64,000 nucleotides of DNA from Lacunisphaera sp. (GTDB lineage Bacteria > Verrucomicrobiota > Verrucomicrobiia > Opitutales > Opitutaceae), in NCBI GenBank assembly GCA_041917235.1, contig JAYRXZ010000006.1, positions 41,517 through 105,516 of the forward strand, read 5' to 3'. Position 1 is the stretch's first letter, and each line of letters begins with the position of its first letter. The notes under the pieces are model-generated. The model had not been told where the DNA came from. It worked only from the letters and a program-made list of their open reading frames with translations, and did not search any database. A program made the translations under genes and the position numbers. Positions 2,495 to 15,035 of this stretch are shown one piece after another.

Positions 2495-2823
2495 GGCGCG
2501 GAGTGGAGAATAAAAGCGACCGCTTGGCAACCGTGACGGCCGGCGTGGAGGCAGACTGGATGGATTCATCGTGGAGCCGCGACTATGCCTGAAACCGGCC
2601 GGGGTGGCTGCGCATATCTTGCGAGCCATTAGCCGGGCCTTGCGGGAATTGCGTCCACCCCTCCGGCCGCCGGAGCAACAACCACAAACCCTGCGCGATA
2701 CTCGGCAACCAATGCGCAGCGACCGGAGCCGGTAACTGGCATTATAGGCGCGACAAGGTGCTGGGCCTCATTAATCTCCCGGCATCGCCTTCCTCATCCA
2801 TCATCACTCCATCCCCGCTCCTC

Positions 2824-3162
2824 ATGAAAAACCGCCATAAAGTCATCACCGCCGGCCTGGTCCTGCTCGCCGGCGCCACCCTGGGCCTCGCCGCCCCTGC
2901 CACCGAAAACTGGGAAAACCACTGCACCAAATGCCACGGCGAGGATGGCAAGGGCCAGACCAAGGTCGGCAAGAAACTCAAGCTGAAGGATTATACCGAC
3001 GCCAAGGCGCAGGCCGAGATGAAGGACGAGGACATGATCAAGGCCATCGCTGACGGCGTGAACGATGCCGCCGGCAAGGAGAAGATGAAGGCCTACAAGG
3101 ACGAGCTTTCGGCCGACGAGATCAAGGAACTCGTCGCCTACATCCGCAAGTTCAAGGCCTGA
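2824..3162 (+). CDS. Small soluble class I monoheme cytochrome c
   Basis: Track ORF 2758..3162; Met at 2824 gives signal peptide MKNRHKVITAGLVLLAGATLGLAAP; single CTKCH heme-binding motif; Lys-rich ~11 kDa mature protein. Confidence 0.8.
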   Translation: MKNRHKVITAGLVLLAGATLGLAAPATENWENHCTKCHGEDGKGQTKVGKKLKLKDYTDAKAQAEMKDEDMIKAIADGVNDAAGKEKMKAYKDELSADEIKELVAYIRKFKA

Positions 3163-3229: not shown

Positions 3230-4714
3230 ATGTCCACGCCCACCCCGCCCCCCGTCGCGCCACGCTCCCACTTCAACAACTGGATCAGCGCCATCGGCGC
3301 CGTGCTCGCCGTGGGCGCGCTGTTCTCGTTCGCGCTGCTCTGCTGGATGGACCTGACCGGGGCGCACAAGAATCCCTACCTCGGCATCTTCACCTACCTC
3401 GTGGCCCCCGGCTTCCTCATCGCCGGCCTGGTCACGGTCTTTTTCGGCGCCTGGGCCCAGCGCCGCTGGGCGATCAAGCATGCGGCCACCATGCCCGACA
3501 AGTGGCGGCTGGACTTCACCAATCCCAAGCAGCGCAAGATGCTGGTCCTGTTCGGCATCGGGGGCGTCGGGTTCCTGCTCCTGAGCGCCTTCGGCAGCTA
3601 CCAGACCTACCATTACGCGGAGTCCACCCAGTTCTGCGGCCAGGTCTGCCACTCGGCCATGAACCCCGAGTTCGTCACCTACCAGCGCGGAGCACACGCC
3701 CGCGTGGACTGCGTGGAGTGCCATGTCGGGTCCGGCGCCACGGCTTTCATCAAGGCCAAGCTCAACGGCACGCGCCAGCTCATCGGCTATACGCTCAACA
3801 ACTACAACCGGCCGATCGACACGCCGGTGCACAACCTCCGCCCCGCCCGGGAGACCTGCGAGAAGTGCCACTGGCCGGAGAAGTTCCACGGCAACCTCGA
3901 CATCACCTTCGACCACTACCTTTCCGACAAGAAAAACACCCCCGCCAGCGTCCGCATGCTGCTGCATGTGAACTCCGGCCGGCAGGGCGGCCCGCTGGCC
4001 GGCATCCACTGGCACGTCAGCCCCGACAGCTCGGTCGAGTATTACGCCGCCGATGCTGACCGCCAGGACATCGTCTGGATGCGCGTCACGGACAAGAAGG
4101 CCGGCACGTCCCGGATCTACCGCAACGAGGAGTTCAAGGGCGAGCCGCCCGCAGGCACGGTCCGCACGATGGACTGCATCGATTGCCACAACCGCCCGGC
4201 CCACGCCTTCCCGACCGCCAACGACGCCGTCGAAAAGTCGCTCGGGCTCGGCACCCTCAGCACCAAGCTCCCCAACATCAAGCGCAGCGCCGTGCAGGCC
4301 ATGCTGCAGAAGGAGATCACCACCGACGCCGGCGCGCCGCAGCAGATCGCCGATTTCCTCACGGCCAAATACAAGGGCGACCCCGAGCTGCCCGCGGCCA
4401 TCGCCGAGGTGCAGCGCATCTACTCCACCTCCATCTTCCCCGAGCGCAAGGCCGACTGGCGCGTCTACCCGAACAACATCGGCCACAAGGACTGGCCCGG
4501 CTGCTTCCGCTGCCACGACGACAAGCACAAGACCGCCACCGGTGAAACCGTCCGCGCCAGCGACTGCACCTCGTGCCACTCGATCATCGCGCAGGGCAAG
4601 GGCGCCGAGCTCGCCACCATCTCGGCCAGCGGCCTGGAGTTCAAGCACCCCGGCGGCGAGCTCGATCCCGAGCTGAGCTGCGCGGACTGCCACAACGGCG
4701 GCATCCAGAAGTAA
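3230..4714 (+). CDS. Membrane-anchored multiheme cytochrome c, NapC/NirT/NrfH-like N-terminus with 7 CxxCH motifs (ImcH-like putative quinol dehydrogenase)
   Basis: N-terminal TM helices (ISAIGAVLAVGALFSFALL; VAPGFLIAGLVTVFFGAW), then CGQVCH, CVECH, CEKCH in NapC/NirT-like spacing, followed by CIDCH, CFRCH, CTSCH, CADCH. Confidence 0.85.
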   Translation: MSTPTPPPVAPRSHFNNWISAIGAVLAVGALFSFALLCWMDLTGAHKNPYLGIFTYLVAPGFLIAGLVTVFFGAWAQRRWAIKHAATMPDKWRLDFTNPKQRKMLVLFGIGGVGFLLLSAFGSYQTYHYAESTQFCGQVCHSAMNPEFVTYQRGAHARVDCVECHVGSGATAFIKAKLNGTRQLIGYTLNNYNRPIDTPVHNLRPARETCEKCHWPEKFHGNLDITFDHYLSDKKNTPASVRMLLHVNSGRQGGPLAGIHWHVSPDSSVEYYAADADRQDIVWMRVTDKKAGTSRIYRNEEFKGEPPAGTVRTMDCIDCHNRPAHAFPTANDAVEKSLGLGTLSTKLPNIKRSAVQAMLQKEITTDAGAPQQIADFLTAKYKGDPELPAAIAEVQRIYSTSIFPERKADWRVYPNNIGHKDWPGCFRCHDDKHKTATGETVRASDCTSCHSIIAQGKGAELATISASGLEFKHPGGELDPELSCADCHNGGIQK

Positions 4715-4804
4715 CGGCGCCCCGCCGGCAAATTACGCTCCGGTTCGGCCAAGCGCTGCGTAGCCGCGGCGCGGCATTCGGCGCATCCTGTGCGCGGAGC
4801 TACC

Positions 4805-6952
4805 ATGAACGCAATCTGCCGGCGGATCCCGCTACTCGTGTTCACCCTGCTGGCGCCCCTGGGCGCCCGCGCCGCCGACGCGGCCGTCACCCCCGCCCCG
4901 CTCAAGGCGCCGCCCGCGGTGCCCAACTCGGAGTGCATGGACTGCCACGAGGCCGAGTTCAAGGCCCCCAAGAAGGGCCTGCCGCCCGTCTGGATCGGTG
5001 TCCGGCCCGAGCTGTTCGCCAAGTCCGTGCACGGCGGACTGAACTGCGTGGACTGCCACGCCAGCATCAAGGACCCCACCCACGAGGACAAGCTGCCGCC
5101 CGCGCAGTGCGCCTCCTGCCACGAGGGCGCCGCCAAGCAGTTCGCCGCCAGCATCCACGGCGTGAAGCGCGACGGCGGGCTCCCCGTCGCCGCCACCTGC
5201 GCAAGCTGCCACGGCAAGACCCACGAGCTGCTGCCGGTGAAGCACGTGGATTCCCCCGTGGCGAAGTTCAGCCTCCTCGCCACCTGCGCGCAGTGCCACG
5301 AGGGCGACAAGACCAAGCTCGGCCTGAAGAACGGCGACGCCATTGCGCATTTCAAGGACAGCATCCACGGCCAGGGCCTCTACAAGATGGGGCTCAACGT
5401 CTCGCCCACCTGCAACGACTGCCACGGCGTGCACGACATCAAGTCCATCAAGGACGCCTCCGCCCACACCAGCCGCGCCGCCCTGTCCAAGACCTGCGGC
5501 GCCTGCCACGTCGGCGTCGAGAAGACCTACGCGGCCAGCATCCACGGCCAGCCCGCCAAGCCCGGCCAGAAGACCGCGGTCTGCACCGACTGCCACACCG
5601 CGCACGACATCGAGCGCCCCGGCAGCGCGCACTTCAAGCAGACCAGCGACCAGAAGTGCGGCGCCTGCCACGAGGACCGCCTCGCCAACTACCGCGAGAC
5701 CTACCACGGCAAGGCCATGCTGCTCGGCCAGGCCAGCGCCGCCACCGACGTCGCCGCGTGCTACGACTGCCACGGCCACCACGACATCCTCAAGCACACC
5801 GACCCGAAGTCGAAGCTCTCGGCCGGCAACATCGTCCAGACCTGCGCCTCGTGCCACAAGGGCGTCAACGCCGCCTTCACCCAATACCAGCCGCACGCGG
5901 ACCACACCGACGGGAAGAACTACCCGGTGCTCCACTGGACCTACCTCGCGATGACGACGCTGCTCGTCAGCGTGTTCGCCTTCTTCGGCGTGCACACGCT
6001 GCTCTGGATCACGCGCTTCACGCTCACTTATCTCCGCGACCCGGCCGGCTTCCGCGCCGCCCGCGCCGCGCTGCACGACGAGACGGAGACCTACCGCCGC
6101 TTCAACCCCTACGAGCGCTTCCTCCACATGCTCGTCGTCACGAGCTTCCTCGCGCTGGTGCTCACCGGCATGCCGCTGAAGTTCTATTACACCGAATGGG
6201 CGCGAGTCATGTTCAACGTCCTCGGCGGCCCCGAGGCCGCGCGCGTGCTGCACCACCTCGCCGCCCTCGTCACGTTCCTGTATTTCGGCCTGCACCTCGC
6301 CAGCCTCGCGCAGGGCCTGTGGCGGAACCGCGGCGCGGTGCGGGACCCCGCCACCGGGCGCTTCGCCCTCGGCCGGTTCTGGGGCGCCGTGTTCGGGCCC
6401 GACTCCATGGTCCCGTCCTTCCAGGACCTGCGCGACTTCCTCGCCCACGTGAAGTGGTTCCTCGGCCGGGGCCCGCGCCCCTCGTGGGACCGCTGGACCT
6501 ACTGGGAGCGCTTCGACTACCTCGCCGTCTTCTGGGGCGTCGGCATCATCGGCCTCTCCGGCCTCGTGCTGTGGTTCCCGAAGTTCTTCACCACCTTCCT
6601 GCCCGGCTGGCTGATCAACATCGCGGTGGTGATCCACTCCGACGAGGCCCTGCTCGCCGCGGGCTTCATCTTCACGTTCCATTTCTTCAACACGCACTTC
6701 CGGCTGGATAAGTTCCCGATGGATACCGTGATCTTCTCCGGCCACATCTCGAAGGCCGAGATGCTGACCGAGCGCCGCCGGTGGTATGACCGCCTCGTCG
6801 CCTCGGGGAAGCTCGAGCAGCACCGCGTGATCCACACCGACTGGGCCGCCCGGCGCACGCTCTACAAGACGCTCGGCTTCATCTTCGTCGGCATCGGGCT
6901 GCTGCTCCTCGCGCTGATGATCTACGCCCTGCTCTCGCGCCTCGGCCACTGA
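4805..6952 (+). CDS. Fusion protein: N-terminal periplasmic 11-heme c-type cytochrome + C-terminal dihaem cytochrome b membrane domain (FdnI/HydC/PhsC-like); CbcL-like
   Basis: Signal peptide MNAICRRIPLLVFTLLAPLGARA; 11 CxxCH motifs (CMDCH, CVDCH, CASCH x3, CAQCH, CNDCH, CGACH x2, CTDCH, CYDCH). C-terminal ~330 aa with 5-6 TM helices, motif RFNPYERFLHMLV and TM histidines (HHLAALVTFLYFGLH; VVIHSDEA; FTFHFFNTHF). Confidence 0.85.
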   Translation: MNAICRRIPLLVFTLLAPLGARAADAAVTPAPLKAPPAVPNSECMDCHEAEFKAPKKGLPPVWIGVRPELFAKSVHGGLNCVDCHASIKDPTHEDKLPPAQCASCHEGAAKQFAASIHGVKRDGGLPVAATCASCHGKTHELLPVKHVDSPVAKFSLLATCAQCHEGDKTKLGLKNGDAIAHFKDSIHGQGLYKMGLNVSPTCNDCHGVHDIKSIKDASAHTSRAALSKTCGACHVGVEKTYAASIHGQPAKPGQKTAVCTDCHTAHDIERPGSAHFKQTSDQKCGACHEDRLANYRETYHGKAMLLGQASAATDVAACYDCHGHHDILKHTDPKSKLSAGNIVQTCASCHKGVNAAFTQYQPHADHTDGKNYPVLHWTYLAMTTLLVSVFAFFGVHTLLWITRFTLTYLRDPAGFRAARAALHDETETYRRFNPYERFLHMLVVTSFLALVLTGMPLKFYYTEWARVMFNVLGGPEAARVLHHLAALVTFLYFGLHLASLAQGLWRNRGAVRDPATGRFALGRFWGAVFGPDSMVPSFQDLRDFLAHVKWFLGRGPRPSWDRWTYWERFDYLAVFWGVGIIGLSGLVLWFPKFFTTFLPGWLINIAVVIHSDEALLAAGFIFTFHFFNTHFRLDKFPMDTVIFSGHISKAEMLTERRRWYDRLVASGKLEQHRVIHTDWAARRTLYKTLGFIFVGIGLLLLALMIYALLSRLGH

Positions 6953-6962
6953 GGACCCTTCC

Positions 6963-8294
6963 ATGAACGCCACGCCGCTGCTCGACTCCATTCTGCTCGG
7001 GCTGTTCCGTTACCGCACGCGCGGTTTCATGCGGATGACCGACTGTGACGGCACGGTGCCGCCCCGGCCGCAATCAGGCGGGACCTACCTCTACGTGCAC
7101 ATCCCGTTCTGCGAGGCGCTGTGCCCGTTCTGCTCGTTCCACCGCGTGCTGCACTGCCGCCCGCAGGCGAAACGCTACTTCGCCGCGCTCCGCCGCGAGC
7201 TCGAGCTCTACCACGCGGCCGGCTTCGAATTCACCGGGGTCTACTTCGGCGGCGGCACCCCGACCGTCGAGCCGGAGGAGCTGCTTGAGACCATCGCGCT
7301 CGTGCGGACGCGGTTCGCCGTGAAGGAGATCTCGGTCGAGACCAACCCCCGCGACCTCCGCCCCGACCTGCTCGCCCGGCTGCGCGCCGGCGGCGTGACG
7401 CGCCTCTCGGTCGGCGTGCAGAGCTTCGACGACACGCTGCTGCGCGAGATGGGCCGCTTTGAGAAATACGGCGGCGGGGCCGAGACGGCGGAGCGCATCC
7501 GCGGCGTGGCGGGGCTCTTCCCCACCCTCAACGTCGACCTGATCTTCAACCAGCCGCACCAGACCCTCGCGTCGCTCGAGCGCGACCTGGAGATCTTCTC
7601 GACCCTCGGGGCCGGCCAGGTTTCCTGCTATCCGCTGATGACCTCGCCCTCCGGCCTGCGCCGCCTCGCCGGCGCAATGGGCGTGCCCGACCGGCGGCGG
7701 CTGCGCCGGTTTTACCAGACCATCGGGCGCCGGCTCGCGGCCGGCGGCTTCTCGCCGACCTCCGCGTGGTGCTTCACGCGGAACGGCCATGGCAGCGACG
7801 AATACATCGCCACCGCGGACAACTACGTCGGCGCCGGCAGCGGCGCGTTCAGCTACCTCGACGGGACGCTCTACTCGACGAGCTTCTCGCTCAACTCCTA
7901 CGAGGAGCGCATCGCGCGGGGCCTCACCGGCATCGTGACGCGGCACCAGCTCGGGGACACCGACCGCATGCGGTATGCGCTGCTCGTGCGGATGTTCGGC
8001 CTCGGCCTCGACCGCGCGTGGGCGGTCGAGCATCACGGCCGAAAATTCTTCCGCCGCCTCTGGGGCGAGCTGCTCACGCTTGAGCTCCTCGGCGCGGCCA
8101 CGCGCGACGCGCGCGGCTGGCGGCTGACGGAAAAGGGCCGCTACTGGCTCATGCTGATGATGGCGGAATTCTTCGAGTCGGTGAACGCCTACCGCGACGC
8201 GATGCGCGCGCACGTGGCGGCCGAGCAGGCCGCGACCGCGCTGGCCGACCCGCTGCACGCCGCCTCCGCAGATTCCGCTCAGGCCAGTGCCTGA
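6963..8294 (+). CDS. Radical SAM protein, HemN/HemW family (oxygen-independent coproporphyrinogen III oxidase-like / heme chaperone-like)
   Basis: CxxxCxxC cluster in YVHIPFCEALCPFCSF followed by the family hallmark YFGGGTP; ~440 aa. True start may be a downstream Met (MRMTD). Confidence 0.85.
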   Translation: MNATPLLDSILLGLFRYRTRGFMRMTDCDGTVPPRPQSGGTYLYVHIPFCEALCPFCSFHRVLHCRPQAKRYFAALRRELELYHAAGFEFTGVYFGGGTPTVEPEELLETIALVRTRFAVKEISVETNPRDLRPDLLARLRAGGVTRLSVGVQSFDDTLLREMGRFEKYGGGAETAERIRGVAGLFPTLNVDLIFNQPHQTLASLERDLEIFSTLGAGQVSCYPLMTSPSGLRRLAGAMGVPDRRRLRRFYQTIGRRLAAGGFSPTSAWCFTRNGHGSDEYIATADNYVGAGSGAFSYLDGTLYSTSFSLNSYEERIARGLTGIVTRHQLGDTDRMRYALLVRMFGLGLDRAWAVEHHGRKFFRRLWGELLTLELLGAATRDARGWRLTEKGRYWLMLMMAEFFESVNAYRDAMRAHVAAEQAATALADPLHAASADSAQASA

Positions 8295-8472: not shown

Positions 8473-9252
8473 ATGAAACTCCCGCTCCGCTGGACAAAAA
8501 ACACGCTGATCTTCGGCGGCATCGCCGCCTGGGGCCTCCTGCTGGTCTCCTGCGTTTCCGTCAACCGCTCCGTCATGGCACCGCCCTCGGTGCCGGGGGC
8601 CAAATTCGTGGGCACCAAGGCCTGCGCCGAATGCCATGAGACCGTGACCACGGGATTCCATGACGCGACGCACGCCAAGCTCACCGCCGATGGCGGCAAC
8701 GGCCAGGACATCGGCTGCGAGGCCTGCCACGGCCCCGGCAGCATCCACGTGAAGTCCGGCGGCGGCGCCGGCAGCATCGTGAACCCGGGCAACTCGCCCG
8801 AGACCTGCTTCCAGTGCCACCTGGACAAGCGCGGCGAGTTCAGCCTGCCGAACACCCACCCGGTGCTCGCCGGCAAGATGAGCTGCAGCGACTGCCACAG
8901 CCCGCACACCGGCGACGCCATCAACGAGACCAACACCGGCATGTCGACGCTCAACTCGTCCTGCCTGAAGTGCCACACCTCACAGGGCGGCCCCTATGTC
9001 TTCGAGCACGAGGCTTCCCGCGAGGGTTGCATGTCCTGCCACAGCCCGCACGGCTCCGTGAACCAGAAGATGCTCAAGGCCCGCAATGCCAACCTCTGCC
9101 TGCAATGCCACTTCCAGGAGCAACCCTCCGCCGGTGTCATCATGATCGGCGGCCGCGACCACGCGAGCTTCCTGTCCCGCGGCACCTGCTGGTCCGGTGG
9201 CTGCCACGAGGCCGTCCACGGCTCACACGTCAGCTCCTCCCTCCGCTTCTAA
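8473..9252 (+). CDS. Periplasmic/lipoprotein multiheme cytochrome c (7 CxxCH + 1 CxxxxCH), MtrA/OmaB-like
   Basis: Signal/lipobox region IAAWGLLLVSC; motifs CAECH, CEACH, CFQCH, CSDCH, CLKCH, CMSCH, CLQCH plus CWSGGCH in 259 aa, i.e. extremely heme-dense. Confidence 0.85.
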   Translation: MKLPLRWTKNTLIFGGIAAWGLLLVSCVSVNRSVMAPPSVPGAKFVGTKACAECHETVTTGFHDATHAKLTADGGNGQDIGCEACHGPGSIHVKSGGGAGSIVNPGNSPETCFQCHLDKRGEFSLPNTHPVLAGKMSCSDCHSPHTGDAINETNTGMSTLNSSCLKCHTSQGGPYVFEHEASREGCMSCHSPHGSVNQKMLKARNANLCLQCHFQEQPSAGVIMIGGRDHASFLSRGTCWSGGCHEAVHGSHVSSSLRF

Positions 9253-9277: not shown

Positions 9278-11404
9278 ATGAACTCCACCGCCATTCTCCA
9301 CCTGATTCGCCGGCCCATGCTGGTCCTCGCGGGGGCGAGCCTGCTGGGCCTGCCGGGCGCCTTGAGCGCCCAAACCGGCAAGGCCAAGGAACCGACCTAC
9401 GAGAACTACATCGACTTCTCCGCGGGCTACAACCTGCAGGAGGGCGACCGCCCCGGCTTCCAGAAGCAATTCCAGCTCAATAAAAAGGGATCCATCGGCA
9501 TCGAGGATCTCTACTACACCACCGAGCTGAAGAACGAGGCCGTCCTCAAGCTCCGTGGCCATGCCCTGGCCGGGAACCATGACTACCTCCTCGACCTGTC
9601 CATCACCAAGGACGAGGTCGGCTACCTGAAGGCCGGCTACAAGATGTTCCGCACCTGGTATGATGGCAGCGGCGGCGTCTGGCCCACCAACGGCCTGCGC
9701 ATCCAGCTCTACGACGAGGACCTGCATGTCGACCGCGGCAACCTCTGGCTGGAGGCCGGCTTCACCAAGCCCGACGCCGTCAACTTCATGTTCCGTTACG
9801 ACTACCTCACGAAGAAGGGCCAGAAGGATTCCACCAGCTGGATGGACACCGGTCTCGCCGTCAGCGCGTCGGCCACCCGCTACATCGTGCCGACCTACCT
9901 GACCTTCGACGAGAAGCGCCACATCCTCAACGGCACCGTCTCGAAGGTCGCGGGCAAGCATGACCTCGCCCTGGGCCTCCGTTACGACAAGGGCGAGTAT
10001 GAGAACGGCCGCTACAGCCGCCGCACCCCGGGGCAGTCGACCGACCGCTACGTCACCGCCAAGGAGGGCCAGGACTTCGATCTGTTCCAGATCCGCGGCA
10101 GCTATCTCAACCAGCTGACCGAGAAGCTCAAGCTGACCACCGCCGTCGCCCGCACCAAGATCGACACCATCCTCAGCGGCAGCCGCATCTTCGGCACCGG
10201 CTACGACGCGGACTACAGCAGCACCTTCCCGACCCGCCAGCAGCGCGACGAGGGCTATTTCAGCCTGCTCCCCGGCAACGAGCTCGGCAAATCGCAGATG
10301 ACGCAGACCGTCGCCACCCTCAGCGCGCTGTATCTCGGCTCCGAGACCCTCCGCATCACGCCCTCCTTCCGGTTCGAGAAGACCCAGTGGCACAACCTGA
10401 TCGGGTTCGAGGAAACGAACTTCGGTGCCGCCCCCACCTTCACGCCCATCAACGACGAGGTGGAGGCCCGGAGCGCGAAAAGCTGGAAGACCTACGCCGC
10501 CAGCGTCGAAGCCCGCTACACCGGTTACAAGAACGTCTCACTCAACTTCAAGGCCGACTGGTCCAACTCCGCGGGCGAGCTCCAGGAGGAGCGCATCCTT
10601 GAGCCGGGCACCCCGCTGCAGGCCATCTCGATCGACCGCGACACCGAGCTGGAGCGCAGCGTGCAGAAGTATGCCTACACCGCCAACTGGTATGCCCGCC
10701 CCGGCACCACCGTCGCGGTGCAATACTACTTCAAGGCCCGCCAGAACGACTACCGCGCCACCCGCGACAACACCGTCAGCACCGCCGACCGCTACCCGGC
10801 CTACGTCACCGGCCAGGACTTTGAGACCAATGACTTCAACATCCGCCTGTCGCACCGCCTGTCGCCCAACTTCCGGACGATCACGCGCTACGACTACCAG
10901 AAGACCACCGTCCGCTCGCAGGAGGTCGGCTTGGCGTTCGCCCAGAGCATGGAGTCCATCCAGCACATCCTCTCCGAGAGCGTGACCTGGAACCCGCTCG
11001 CCCGCTGGTATCTCCAGGGCAACGTCAACTACGTGAACGAGACCCTCAAGACTCCGGCCGTCGGCCTGACCGGCGCCGCGAGCAACCTCGTGAAGAACAG
11101 CGATTCGAACTACGTGAACTTCAGCCTGAGCAGCGGCTACGCCCTCGACGAACAGAGCGACCTACTGGTGGATTACATGCTCTACAAGGCGATGGGTAAT
11201 TACATCAACAACTCCGCCGTCACCGTGCCCTACGGCACCGACAGCAAGCTGCAGACCTTCTCGGTGGGCTGGAACCGCCGCATGAACGCCCGCACGACGG
11301 TCAACCTGAAGTATACCTACGCCAAGAACGAGGACGTCCCGTCGCTCGGCGCCGCTGACTACGAGGGCCACCTGCTCTACGGTAAGGTCCAGTATCGCTT
11401 CTGA
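9278..11404 (+). CDS. Outer-membrane beta-barrel protein (~708 aa), putative porin partner of the upstream multiheme cytochrome (MtrB/MtoB/OmbB-like)
   Basis: Track ORF 9197..11404; Met at 9278 gives signal peptide MNSTAILHLIRRPMLVLAGASLLGLPGALSAQ. Alternating hydrophobic/aromatic beta-strand pattern throughout; C-terminus ...LYGKVQYRF with terminal Phe typical of OMPs. Starts 26 bp after the cytochrome gene. Confidence 0.75.
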   Translation: MNSTAILHLIRRPMLVLAGASLLGLPGALSAQTGKAKEPTYENYIDFSAGYNLQEGDRPGFQKQFQLNKKGSIGIEDLYYTTELKNEAVLKLRGHALAGNHDYLLDLSITKDEVGYLKAGYKMFRTWYDGSGGVWPTNGLRIQLYDEDLHVDRGNLWLEAGFTKPDAVNFMFRYDYLTKKGQKDSTSWMDTGLAVSASATRYIVPTYLTFDEKRHILNGTVSKVAGKHDLALGLRYDKGEYENGRYSRRTPGQSTDRYVTAKEGQDFDLFQIRGSYLNQLTEKLKLTTAVARTKIDTILSGSRIFGTGYDADYSSTFPTRQQRDEGYFSLLPGNELGKSQMTQTVATLSALYLGSETLRITPSFRFEKTQWHNLIGFEETNFGAAPTFTPINDEVEARSAKSWKTYAASVEARYTGYKNVSLNFKADWSNSAGELQEERILEPGTPLQAISIDRDTELERSVQKYAYTANWYARPGTTVAVQYYFKARQNDYRATRDNTVSTADRYPAYVTGQDFETNDFNIRLSHRLSPNFRTITRYDYQKTTVRSQEVGLAFAQSMESIQHILSESVTWNPLARWYLQGNVNYVNETLKTPAVGLTGAASNLVKNSDSNYVNFSLSSGYALDEQSDLLVDYMLYKAMGNYINNSAVTVPYGTDSKLQTFSVGWNRRMNARTTVNLKYTYAKNEDVPSLGAADYEGHLLYGKVQYRF

Positions 11405-11704: not shown

Positions 11705-13117
11705 ATGAACCTGCTCGCGCCCTCCGCCCCGTCAGCTCCCGCCGCCGCATCGCACGTGTGGCCCGTGGCCGTCATCGGCGGCGGCCTCACCGGCCTCGCC
11801 ACCGCCTGGCAGCTGCGCCGGGCGGGCGTCCCGGTCGTGGTGTTCGAGGCCGGCGTGGCCCCCGGCGGCGTCATCGGCTCCGGCCGCGAGGGCGGCTGGC
11901 TGGTCGAGACCGGCCCCAACACCCTCTTCGAGAACACCCCGGATATCTCGGCCTTCCTCACGGAGCTCGGACTGCGCGATCGCCGGCTTGTGGCCAATCC
12001 CGCCGCGGCGAAGCGCTACGTCGTGCAACATGGCGCCCCCGTGGCCCTGCCCGACTCCGCGTTTAAGTTCATTACCACCCCGCTCCTGTCAGCCCGCGCC
12101 AAGCTCAACGTGCTCGGCGAACCCTTCCGTGGCCGCCCGCCGGCGGGCAAGGAGGAATCCGTCGCGGAGTTCGTCACGCGCCGCCTCGGCCCGGAGTTTC
12201 TCGACTACATCGTGAACCCGTTCGTCGCGGGCGTCTTCGCCGGCGACCCGGCCGCCCTGTCCGTGAAGCACGCCTTCCCCAAGCTCTTCGCGCTGGAACA
12301 CGAGCACGGCTCGCTCGTCCGCGGCTCGCTCGCGCGGCGCAACGCCACCGGCGCCCCGAAGGGCAGCATGATCTCCTTTCCTGACGGCCTGGCGGAGATC
12401 CCCCGCGCCCTCGCCCGGGCCCTCGGCTCCGACCTGCGACTCGGCCACGCCGTCACCCATGTCCGCCGCACCGGCTCGACCTGGCAGGTCGGCTTCATCA
12501 CCGGCGGCATCCGCCGGGAGGAGGAATTTGCCGCCGTGATCTGCGCGCTGCCGCCCGACCTGCTGGGCGGGCTCCGGTTTGAGGGCGCCCCCGCCGCCGG
12601 CGCGCTCGCCCAGCTGCGCCGGGTCACCTCGCCGGCCGTCGCCTCCGTGTTCCTCGGCTACCGCCGGGAGGACGTCGCGCACCCGCTCGACGGCTTCGGC
12701 ATCCTCACCCCCGCGGTCGAGCGGCGCCGCATCCTCGGCACGCTGTTTTCCAGCACCCTGTTCCCCGGCCGCGCGCCGGAGGGACATGTCGCCCTGACCA
12801 CCTTCGTCGGCGGCACGCGGCAGCCGGAACTCGCCGGCGCCAGCGACCGCGAGCTGCTCGACACCGTCCGCTCCGAACTTGGCGCGCTGCTCGGCGTGCA
12901 CGGCGAACCCGTGTTCACCCGGATCCAGCGCTGGCCGCACGCCATCCCGCAATACACCGTCGGCTTCCAACAGTTCAAGGATGCCTGCGCCGCCGCCGAG
13001 GCCGGCGCGCCCGGCCTTTTCATCGGCGGCACCAGCCGCGACGGTGTCTCGCTCTCGCAATGCATCGCCGCCGGCAAGCGGCTGGCTGCGGCCGTCCAAC
13101 AGGCCGTCACGGCCTGA
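11705..13117 (+). CDS. hemY: Protoporphyrinogen oxidase (HemY/PPOX family, FAD-dependent)
   Basis: N-terminal dinucleotide-binding motif VAVIGGGLTGLATAWQL; length and conservation pattern of PPOX (VQHGAPVALP; FxGGxSRDGVSL near C-terminus). Confidence 0.8.
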   Translation: MNLLAPSAPSAPAAASHVWPVAVIGGGLTGLATAWQLRRAGVPVVVFEAGVAPGGVIGSGREGGWLVETGPNTLFENTPDISAFLTELGLRDRRLVANPAAAKRYVVQHGAPVALPDSAFKFITTPLLSARAKLNVLGEPFRGRPPAGKEESVAEFVTRRLGPEFLDYIVNPFVAGVFAGDPAALSVKHAFPKLFALEHEHGSLVRGSLARRNATGAPKGSMISFPDGLAEIPRALARALGSDLRLGHAVTHVRRTGSTWQVGFITGGIRREEEFAAVICALPPDLLGGLRFEGAPAAGALAQLRRVTSPAVASVFLGYRREDVAHPLDGFGILTPAVERRRILGTLFSSTLFPGRAPEGHVALTTFVGGTRQPELAGASDRELLDTVRSELGALLGVHGEPVFTRIQRWPHAIPQYTVGFQQFKDACAAAEAGAPGLFIGGTSRDGVSLSQCIAAGKRLAAAVQQAVTA

Positions 13118-13450: not shown

Positions 13451-14551
13451 TCACCCCGCCAGGCTGACGGCCGGATAAAACTCGACCGGACGGTCGGCGG
13501 CCGTCGCTTGGGCATCCCCGGCCTGCAGCGCCCGCTCGGCCTGCGCCCAGAGGGTGGTCGTGCGCTCGGCGAGGATCTCGCGGCAGCGGATGATCTCCGA
13601 CTCCCGCGCCGCGCGGTTTTCCGCGGCGATCTTCGCGAGGTCGTCGAGATTGTAGACAAAGACGTTCTTGAGCGCAGTGACGCCGGCATCGACGTCGCGC
13701 GGCAGGGCGGCATCGATGAAAAACATCGGCCGGCCCGAGCGCTGCTGCATCGCGGCGGCAGCCCGCTCCGGCGAGATGATGGCCGCGGGACAGGAGGTGG
13801 AGCAGACCACGACGTCGAATTCGCCCAGTCGGGTGAGCGCCTCGTCAAAGGAGACCGCCGTGGCCCCCAGTTCCATTGCCGCCTCGCTGGCACGCTCCAG
13901 GCGCCGGCTGGCGACCACCAACGAACCCGGGCTGCGGCTGCGGAAGGCGCGGCCGCTCTTCAGGCCGATGTCGCCGGCACCCAACAACAGCACCTTCGTT
14001 TCGTCGAGCTTGCCGAAGATCCGCAGCGCGACCTCCACGGCCACGTTCGAGACGCTGACCAGGCCCGCCGTGATGCCCGTGTGCGTGCGGACGTGCTTGG
14101 CCGCCTGGAAGGCTTTCTGGAAAATGCGGTTCAGGACCGGACCCGCCGAGCCCCGGCCCTGTGCGGTGAGGAAGGCTTTCTTCACCTGGCCGAAAATCTC
14201 GTTCTCGCCGATCATCTGGGAATCGAGGCCGCTCGCCACCTCCAGCAGATGCTCGACCGTCGCGCGGCCGGCCAAGCCCAGCTTGATCCGATCAAATTCC
14301 TCCGGCGCGAAGCCCTGCCGCGCGCAGAACGCCGCGGCCACTTGGGCGGCCTGGCGATCGTTCTCGCCGACCCCGTAGATTTCCACGCGGTTGCAGGTGT
14401 TCAGGATGACAAACTCGACCAGGCCCGGGAGCCCCTTCAGGTCCGCGGCCAGACCGGCCTCGTTCACGGCGGAGAGGGCCAGCTTTTCGCGCAGCCCGAG
14501 CGGGGCGGTGCGGTGGGTGGCGCCAACAAGAAACAGTTGTCCGTCGTTCAT
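13451..14551 (-). CDS. hemA: Glutamyl-tRNA reductase
   Basis: Track ORF 13451..14878(-); the conserved HemA N-terminus begins at internal Met MNDGQLFLVGATHRTAPLGLREKLAL; contains ILNTCNRVEIYG (catalytic Cys region) and NADPH-binding LLLGAGDIG. Confidence 0.85.
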   Translation of the reverse strand: MNDGQLFLVGATHRTAPLGLREKLALSAVNEAGLAADLKGLPGLVEFVILNTCNRVEIYGVGENDRQAAQVAAAFCARQGFAPEEFDRIKLGLAGRATVEHLLEVASGLDSQMIGENEIFGQVKKAFLTAQGRGSAGPVLNRIFQKAFQAAKHVRTHTGITAGLVSVSNVAVEVALRIFGKLDETKVLLLGAGDIGLKSGRAFRSRSPGSLVVASRRLERASEAAMELGATAVSFDEALTRLGEFDVVVCSTSCPAAIISPERAAAAMQQRSGRPMFFIDAALPRDVDAGVTALKNVFVYNLDDLAKIAAENRAARESEIIRCREILAERTTTLWAQAERALQAGDAQATAADRPVEFYPAVSLAG

Positions 14552-14798
14552 CGTGCGGTGGTAGGGTGAAATCTGAACCCGGCCAGTATCGCAGGGATGC
14601 CCGGAACCGTCTGCGCGACGGTTGCCATCCACTCCGCAGTTCTTGCGCCCTGTGCCTGGGGGACCGCCCCGGGACCCGCCTGATCCCCTAATGCCCCTTA
14701 TGAGAAGGCCTTGAACGTCCGCCGGCCCGCCGGGGGCCCCGGCGGGCCGGCCAAGTTTCTGTTCGACAAGCCCCCGCCCGGCGCCTTCTGTTCCGGCC

Positions 14799-15035
14799 AT
14801 GGCCTCGCCTGAGAAAAAGCCCTTTTCCGTCGTCACCCTCGTCATTGACCTGACGCTCACCGCCATCGCCTTTGGCATCTTTTACTGGCTCGTGAACTCG
14901 CACGTGCCCTCCAACGACCCGAAGATGGTCATGCTGTGGGGTGGCCTCGCCGCCGGCTGCATGGCCGGCGTGTTCTGGCTCGCCTGGCAGATGCTCAAGG
15001 TCGTCTTCCAGTTCCAGCGCGATTCGCGCAAGTGA
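14799..15035 (+). CDS. Small hypothetical membrane protein (78 aa, 2 predicted TM)
   Basis: Strong GC3 bias; two hydrophobic helices; no competing credible ORF (overlapping 14882..16366(-) ORF is antisense to a real gene). Confidence 0.5.
   Translation: MASPEKKPFSVVTLVIDLTLTAIAFGIFYWLVNSHVPSNDPKMVMLWGGLAAGCMAGVFWLAWQMLKVVFQFQRDSRK

Follow-up and report, generated by a model that had tools for sequence, protein, structure and literature searches.

A CbcL/MtrH/MtoC-family bc-type cytochrome with eleven haem motifs in an Opitutaceae cytochrome gene cluster

What is the role of a single polypeptide that joins a multihaem cytochrome c to a membrane-embedded cytochrome b? The question is raised by a gene at 4805..6952 (+ strand) of a 64,000-nucleotide stretch of Lacunisphaera sp. 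DNA (assembly GCA_041917235.1, contig JAYRXZ010000006.1, positions 41,517 to 105,516), referred to here as the window. An initial annotation, made from the sequence alone, had read the product as a self-contained electron wire from quinol to a string of c haems and suggested that it might be a variant distinct from the described CbcL-type proteins. The protein is a regular member of the described CbcL/MtrH/MtoC family and not a new design, since it has the CbcL-like domain order, is co-linear with its homologues, and has an 11-haem form for which the family catalogue has earlier entries and which is the commonest among the best 150 relatives. We consider it quite probable that this inner-membrane bc cytochrome serves a pathway of extracellular electron transfer, most likely as a menaquinol:periplasmic-cytochrome oxidoreductase that feeds it.

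Architecture of the predicted bc cytochrome

The gene is complete, with a single open reading frame (ORF) that encodes 715 amino acids (aa) and has its stop codon within 4805..6952. Its ATG start is preceded by GGAG 5 nt upstream, an in-frame GTG at 4790 being a less likely start, and its GC content at third codon positions (GC3, 0.97) is like that of the neighbouring genes. An identical public gene call exists for the product, which shares a 90%-identity cluster with a protein labelled "hypothetical protein" from a Lacunisphaera sp. metagenome-assembled genome (MAG). No second CbcL-like paralogue was found in the 64-kb window by tblastn. Since a signal-like N terminus, 11 CxxCH motifs, six hydrophobic helices, and the sequence RFNPYERFLH were all recovered by motif counting, hydropathy analysis, and AlphaFold2 (AF2) modelling, the structural description given in the initial annotation is accurate.

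The N-terminal half comprises a predicted Sec signal peptide (aa 1-23; 4805..4873) and a periplasmic multihaem cytochrome c domain (aa 24-372; 4874..5920), both on the + strand, as are all parts of the gene described below. The signal peptide was read from the sequence as a hydrophobic core followed by A-R-A, with cleavage after the ARA (LLAPLGARA/AD); the AF2 model has predicted local distance difference test (pLDDT) values <50 over this region. CxxCH motifs occur at aa 44, 81, 102, 132, 161, 203, 231, 260, 285, 319, and 347, for a total of 11 versus 0.045 expected from composition, and the domain matches the Pfam families Cytochrome_C7, Cytochrom_c3_2, and Paired_CXXCH_1. Thus motifs, Pfam matches, and the signal-like N terminus all identify the N-terminal exported multihaem c domain, with 3-23 CXXCH motifs, by which the family is recognized. 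At least 11 non-motif histidines are also invariant, and those that do not vary in 42 homologues are H76, H118, H140, H188, H210, H247, H267, H301, H325, H326, and H364. Their number agrees with bis-His ligation of the haems, which measurements on CbcL have shown for all nine of its c haems (PMC9129911).

The C-terminal half is predicted to be a membrane domain. Hydropathy analysis revealed six hydrophobic segments (approximately aa 378-405, 438-461, 481-503, 570-599, 604-625, and 684-715), all of which are long helices in the AF2 model (mean pLDDT 73). Hydropathy and model agree on six transmembrane (TM) helices, where the initial annotation had put five or six. A domain of approximately six TM helices following the c domain is typical of the family, and the helix positions parallel those of the Opitutus terrae and Lacunisphaera limnophila proteins Oter_2603 and Verru16b_03342 (PMC6295460, Table S2).

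The first helix, TM-A (aa 378-405; 5936..6019), spans residues 374-411 in the model, contains an HTxLW motif with H397, and joins the c domain to the b core. This core (aa 432-633; 6098..6703) is of the FdnI-type, with four helices and two haems; it begins with RFNPYERFLH (aa 432-441) and contains the predicted ligand histidines H441, H483, H611, and H626. Helices 2 and 3 of the core are separated by a cytoplasmic insert of approximately 64 residues (aa 506-569; 6320..6511) with the pattern FGPDS...P..D...WF..GP.P...RWTYWE[KR]FD, in which S534, D541, W551, F552, P559, Y566, and E568 are conserved over 65 diverse homologues. The insert, which falls between the two stretches of the b profile that align to FdnI, is absent from FdnI and present in Geobacter sulfurreducens CbcL. 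The sixth, C-terminal TM helix (aa 684-715; 6854..6949) covers residues 680-714 in the model.

Several observations support the claim that the membrane domain is a dihaem cytochrome b. The Pfam family Ni_hydr_CYTB scores 28.7 bits against the whole protein (cut-off 30.1) and 31.8 bits against the isolated b domain, and 20 of 24 diverse b-domains of the family match it. A profile built from 24 diverse b-domains matches E. coli FdnI (PDB 1KQF chain C) with an E value of 4.1e-11 and aligns H441, H483, H611, and H626 with FdnI His18, His57, His155, and His169, which axially ligate the pair of b haems in the published structure of formate dehydrogenase N (FDH-N). In 65 b-domains that are 33-57% identical to that of the 715-aa protein, the four residues are conserved at 97, 100, 100, and 97%, respectively. 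The sole significant Foldseek match of the model in the PDB was 1kqf_C (E 6e-4, target TM-score 0.76). Since a cytochrome b profile matches the isolated domain and the four TM histidines are conserved, the assignment stands, and the protein has the HydC/FdnI-like dihaem b core with conserved TM histidines that marks the family. A Pfam register that put TM-A on profile helix 2 was dropped; the FdnI structure and profile support the other register.

FdnI itself, the gamma subunit of E. coli FDH-N (1KQF/1KQG chain C), is encoded as a polypeptide of its own (217 aa) and docks to FdnGH. It lacks the c haems, TM-A, the sixth helix, and the cytoplasmic insert, and its identity to the b domain of the 715-aa protein is approximately 15-17%. 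The four-helix dihaem fold thus means a shared fold and a likely shared haem geometry with FdnI, not membership in a dehydrogenase.

Three membrane histidines beyond the b-haem ligands are also conserved. H397 (5993-5995), H631 (6695-6697), and H497 (6293-6295) are found in 97%, 86%, and 71%, respectively, of the 65 b-domains. All three are located toward the cytoplasmic face, have no counterpart in FdnI, and could belong to a quinol or proton site.

Kinship with CbcL and the two additional haem sites

The type protein of the family, G. sulfurreducens CbcL, is a bc-type menaquinol oxidase that serves extracellular acceptors of low potential. It bears nine CXXCH motifs within the N-terminal half, plus six TM helices within the C-terminal half (PMC6295460). 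A homologue search seeded with another sequence (P0181) recovered a protein (P0357) that we took as CbcL (GSU0274), since it is annotated as G. sulfurreducens, is 619 aa long, and has its motifs at the positions listed for GSU0274 in Table S2 of PMC6295460. BLASTP aligned the 715-aa protein to it with 38% identity over 640 columns (E 2e-135), and the alignment runs co-linearly from query residues 97-715 to subject residues 30-619, giving the full-length homology to the type protein that is expected of a family member. The b domains are 47.5% identical. As GSU0274 has the identical c-then-b order, the initial claim that the domain order differs from that of CbcL does not hold. The claimed difference in haem number is real with respect to GSU0274, as there are 11 motifs versus 9, but the family spans 3-23 haem motifs and includes 11-haem proteins already listed from Verrucomicrobia.

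This range comes from the catalogue by Zhong and Shi (2018) of 138 CbcL/MtrH/MtoC homologues in 15 phyla, with 3-23 haem motifs, in which Table S2 lists four Verrucomicrobia proteins with 11 motifs and six TM helices: Oter_2603 of O. terrae, Verru16b_03342 of L. limnophila, and proteins from an Opitutae MAG and a Verrucomicrobia MAG (PMC6295460). One of our sequences (P0064) is Verru16b_03342 (WP_069963319.1), with a length of 722 aa and motif positions that match Table S2. It is 64% identical to the 715-aa protein, which thereby has an orthologue already assigned to the family in the literature. The L. limnophila and O. terrae proteins (722 and 729 aa) resemble the 715-aa protein in their six TM helices and in the number (11) and positions of their CXXCH motifs, and are its orthologues or paralogues. 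L. limnophila differs in carrying two tandem CbcL-like copies, compared to one in this window.

Wider searches showed the family to be very large: a library of representatives at 50% identity contains 5529 clusters that match at E<=1e-3, of which 832 reach E<=1e-30. The 150 best representatives have 0 to 22 haem motifs, and 11 is the most frequent count (38/150). One relative with 22 motifs (P0122, 1005 aa) contains the 11-haem module twice. A profile search of genome contigs with a 9-haem alignment yielded 80 loci from Thermodesulfobacteriota/Syntrophales; G. sulfurreducens was not among these 80, and one of them (L043) reproduced OGP74219.1, which is listed in the published catalogue (37% identity, E 9e-136). 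Sequence searches of the PDB with the protein and with a 42-sequence profile detected no solved member of the CbcL family, giving only weak matches to multihaem c proteins (28pb_A, cytochromes c3, and octahaem nitrite reductase).

Detailed comparison revealed what the 715-aa protein and CbcL have in common. In both, a signal peptide and a multihaem c domain precede six TM helices that include an FdnI/HydC-type dihaem b core, and both contain the four b-haem ligands and the FGPDS...RWTYWEKFD insert. H397 corresponds to CbcL H308, and F621 to CbcL F525, a gain-of-function position. The differences are the number of haem sites (11 versus 9), the phylum (Verrucomicrobiota for the 715-aa protein), and the location of the gene, with an imcH homologue and a porin-cytochrome pair right next to it. 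The MtoC/MtrH proteins Daro_1404, Galf_2006, and Rfer_4073, from Fe(II)-oxidising or Fe(III)-reducing Betaproteobacteria, belong to the same family and have the same c-then-b order. They contain nine haems rather than eleven, and their genes cluster with porin-cytochrome genes of the mtrAB/mtoAB type (PMC6295460), as the gene studied here does with its porin-cytochrome pair.

The two haem sites with no counterpart in the 9-haem Geobacter CbcL are most probably sites 8 and 9 (C260 and C285; 5582..5671). In both a Smith-Waterman alignment and an hhalign comparison of 40 eleven-haem with 38 nine-haem c domains (probability 100%, E 8e-45), sites 1-7 and 10-11 pair with CbcL sites 1-9, leaving C260 and C285 opposite a 43-residue haem-free loop of CbcL that holds V205. 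Substitution of V205 lets CbcL work above its normal cut-off of -0.1 V, relieving a potential-dependent inactivation (bioRxiv 10.1101/2022.08.31.506072). The placement is not certain, because the best BLAST alignment has a different register and places the additional sites at C44 and C81. We downgraded this N-terminal position, since Smith-Waterman and profile-profile comparison favour the internal one; internal repeats in the c domain make every haem-site alignment somewhat ambiguous.

In other 9-haem lineages, different pairs of the eleven sites lack a counterpart. For example, roughly sites 4 and 6 are absent from a protein approximately 30% identical to ours that has the motif spacing of MtoC/MtrH (P0212), which we used as a stand-in for, and not as an authentic, MtoC/MtrH. 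The different missing pairs suggest, and do not prove, that eleven haems are the template from which shorter forms derive.

Cytochrome and haem genes around the bc cytochrome

The gene resides in the ordinary chromosome of a Lacunisphaera-like, polysaccharide-degrading member of the Opitutaceae, in which the surrounding genes encode GH31, GH2, PcRGLX-like, PPDK, PFOR, and RND efflux proteins. Within this setting, it is part of a cluster of cytochrome genes. The monohaem cytochrome c, ImcH-like, 8-haem cytochrome, and porin genes described below recur with a CbcL-like gene, in differing order, in three related genomes: L. limnophila (locus L001), a genome with a 92%-identical orthologue (L082), and a third Opitutaceae genome (L083).

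Upstream of the bc cytochrome gene and on the same strand are two genes for potential partners. The first (2758..3162) encodes a small monohaem class-I cytochrome c (Pfam Cytochrom_C and Cytochrome_CBB3), a candidate periplasmic carrier, and occurs with ImcH-like and CbcL-like genes in all three related loci. The second (3230..4714), which ends 90 bp upstream of the CbcL-like gene, encodes a 494-aa homologue of the ImcH-type NapC/NirT multihaem quinol dehydrogenases (Pfam Cytochrom_NNT). With three TM helices, a CX3CH motif at aa 136, and six CxxCH motifs, it is predicted to bind seven haems, and its pattern of motifs and TM helices is that of Oter_2584 (PMC6295460, Table S3). ImcH-like genes adjoin CbcL-like genes in L001 and L083.

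On the downstream side, a HemN-family radical SAM protein is encoded 10 bp after the CbcL-like stop codon (6963..8294, + strand; NCBIfam NF006385, 412.8 bits versus a cut-off of 355), a position that the HemN-family gene also keeps in L082. It is followed on the + strand by a periplasmic 8-haem cytochrome related to MtrA/DmsE (8473..9252; seven CxxCH motifs plus CWSGGCH, with partial matches to the NCBIfam DmsE/GSU2203 families) and by a 708-aa putative outer-membrane beta-barrel porin (9278..11404), so named for its signal peptide, its C-terminal ...YRF, and its context. The putative porin has no match in Pfam or NCBIfam, and is found beside an 8-haem cytochrome in L001 and L082 as well. The pair matches the porin-cytochrome arrangement of He et al. 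(2017), who described a verrucomicrobial "novel porin-multiheme cytochrome c" system with eight conserved haem sites, O. terrae included, and proposed it for extracellular electron transfer (PMC5615132). According to the 2018 catalogue, imcH genes are not adjacent to mtrAB-type genes (PMC6295460); in contrast, the imcH-like gene, the cbcL-like gene, and the porin-cytochrome pair lie within one cluster here.

The cluster is flanked by a protoporphyrinogen-oxidase-like gene (11705-13117) and hemA (13451-14878, - strand). Because the HemN-family, protoporphyrinogen-oxidase-like, and hemA genes are present, genes for haem supply or chaperoning are embedded in a locus that needs approximately 29 haems per protein set. 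On the + strand, no terminator-like site was detected between the cytochrome c, ImcH-like, CbcL-like, and HemN-like genes; the terminator-like sites of the scan occurred at the rate of the shuffled background. A promoter scan of the locus returned 0 promoters.

Other features of the loci were observed in passing. A 419-aa putative lipoprotein with a LASC lipobox (1370-2629, - strand) is encoded by a gene that diverges from the cytochrome cluster; it matched nothing in Pfam or NCBIfam and is built from two tandem repeats of approximately 140 aa (TAFPGDVGGDLANxNRWxGQLGxPP…MVPHxGATWFFKLTGP). Pairs of CbcL-like paralogues occur in L001 (7712-12169; 732 and 722 aa) and L083 (4996-12274; 769 and 757 aa). 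Just upstream of the CbcL-like/ImcH-like cluster of L083 are genes for a small cytochrome, a 4Fe-4S protein, and an NrfD-type membrane protein (454-2940). This trio, which is absent from our window, would be a third type of quinol-interacting module.

Electron flow and alternative explanations

A mechanism that accommodates these features is that Sec would export the N-terminal domain, which would acquire its 11 bis-His c haems in the periplasm, while two b haems would stack across the membrane within the four-helix core, with H483/H611 holding the haem on the periplasmic side and H441/H626 that on the cytoplasmic side. By analogy to the FdnI quinone site and to a mechanism proposed for CbcL (bioRxiv 10.1101/2022.08.31.506072), menaquinol would be oxidised at the membrane domain near the cytoplasm-side haem b, with release of protons to the cytoplasm. 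Electrons would then cross the membrane via the two b haems, run along the 11 c haems, and be taken up by periplasmic carriers, the monohaem cytochrome c encoded nearby being one candidate, and from there by the 8-haem cytochrome/porin conduit, with Fe(III), humic quinones, or similar external acceptors at the end. With the adjacent ImcH-type enzyme, the quinol pool may have another outlet, which could serve a different redox-potential window, as in Geobacter. The signal peptide, the 11-haem c domain, and the FdnI/HydC-type dihaem b domain support the self-contained wire from quinol to multihaem chain that was initially predicted. We infer its link to quinol chemistry and extracellular electron transfer from the genomic context, namely the ImcH-like, monohaem cytochrome c, and porin/8-haem cytochrome genes.

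Some considerations weigh against this assignment. Haem loading, quinol specificity, the direction of electron flow, and the partners are all things that we infer. We know of no experimentally studied member of this verrucomicrobial clade, and, to our knowledge, the quinol site has not been located even for CbcL. The full-length protein falls slightly under the gathering score of Ni_hydr_CYTB, the AF2 model, made without cofactors, reaches only moderate quality (pLDDT 73), and the conserved H397, H631, and H497 have no FdnI counterpart. Moreover, family membership does not fix the direction of electron flow, because MtoC homologues occur in Fe(II) oxidisers (PMC6295460).

The main rival keeps the family and reverses the direction. 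The protein would be a quinone reductase that feeds the quinone pool with periplasmic electrons, delivered through the porin-cytochrome pair from Fe(II), reduced humics, or a cathode, as proposed for MtoC. Homologues are present among Fe(II) oxidisers as well as Fe(III) reducers, with no sequence feature that separates the two directions (PMC6295460), and FdnI, as is generally known, reduces quinone in FDH-N (1KQF). However, the ImcH homologue encoded next door belongs to a type linked so far only to outward electron transfer (PMC6295460), and the chromosome is that of a sugar-degrading heterotroph (GH31, GH2, PcRGLX, PFOR), in keeping with the suggestion that bog Verrucomicrobia need an electron sink (PMC5615132). 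We regard inward flow as unlikely.

It is very unlikely that the protein falls outside the CbcL type as a variant of distinct structure, as first suggested: although it has eleven haem motifs versus nine in GSU0274, each of the nine CbcL motifs has a partner among the eleven sites, the order of the two domains is the same, the alignment over CbcL residues 30-619 is co-linear, and the catalogued 11-haem architecture has the commonest motif count among the best 150 representatives. Hardly tenable at all is a role as the gamma subunit that anchors a formate dehydrogenase or NiFe hydrogenase in the membrane, for despite the FdnI fold and haem ligands, weak matches to TIGR01583 and NF007924, and public homologue names such as "formate dehydrogenase-O subunit gamma" and "cytochrome b subunit of formate dehydrogenase", the equivalog scores are 32.9 versus 115.85 bits (TIGR01583) and 31.6 versus 341 (NF007924), only the first two helices match, the periplasmic partner is already fused on in the form of 11 c haems, and no molybdopterin, 4Fe-4S/Fe-S, or NiFe subunit genes were found in the neighbourhood here or in the three related loci. 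Since no genes for a formate dehydrogenase or hydrogenase are nearby and the scores against the FdnI models are well short of the cut-offs, databases that call the protein "formate dehydrogenase gamma subunit" use a fold-based misnomer.

A more far-reaching reading is possible, though we hold it to be doubtful. The 11-haem form would be ancestral to the CbcL/MtrH/MtoC family and the 9-haem CbcL of Geobacter derived, with haems 8-9 replaced by the V205 shut-off loop. In that case the protein from Verrucomicrobia would form a continuous wire of two b and eleven c haems that has no gate, co-transcribed with the ImcH-type, monohaem cytochrome c, and porin/8-haem conduit genes as a complete quinol-to-surface pathway, and H397 (with H631) would mark a quinol/proton site or a third haem. 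If true, this would place such a complete pathway in a sugar-degrading phylum that is not known for metal respiration.

For the protein itself, the main value of this work is a correction of its annotation, from "hypothetical protein" or "formate dehydrogenase gamma subunit" to a CbcL-type exit from the quinone pool. Since no solved structure or located quinol site is known for the family, the features conserved across phyla (H397, H631, and the cytoplasmic insert) are concrete targets for study. Comparison of the 11- and 9-haem forms suggests that two haems were replaced, in the Geobacter lineage, by the V205 loop of CbcL, which is a candidate basis for redox gating. The locus also helps to show that Opitutaceae, which are abundant in soil and freshwater, carry all modules for moving electrons from quinol to the cell surface in one place, a picture that matters for carbon flow in anoxic, humic-rich habitats. 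Most of the value lies in this locus-level view of the Opitutaceae and in the comparative clues that it offers about CbcL.

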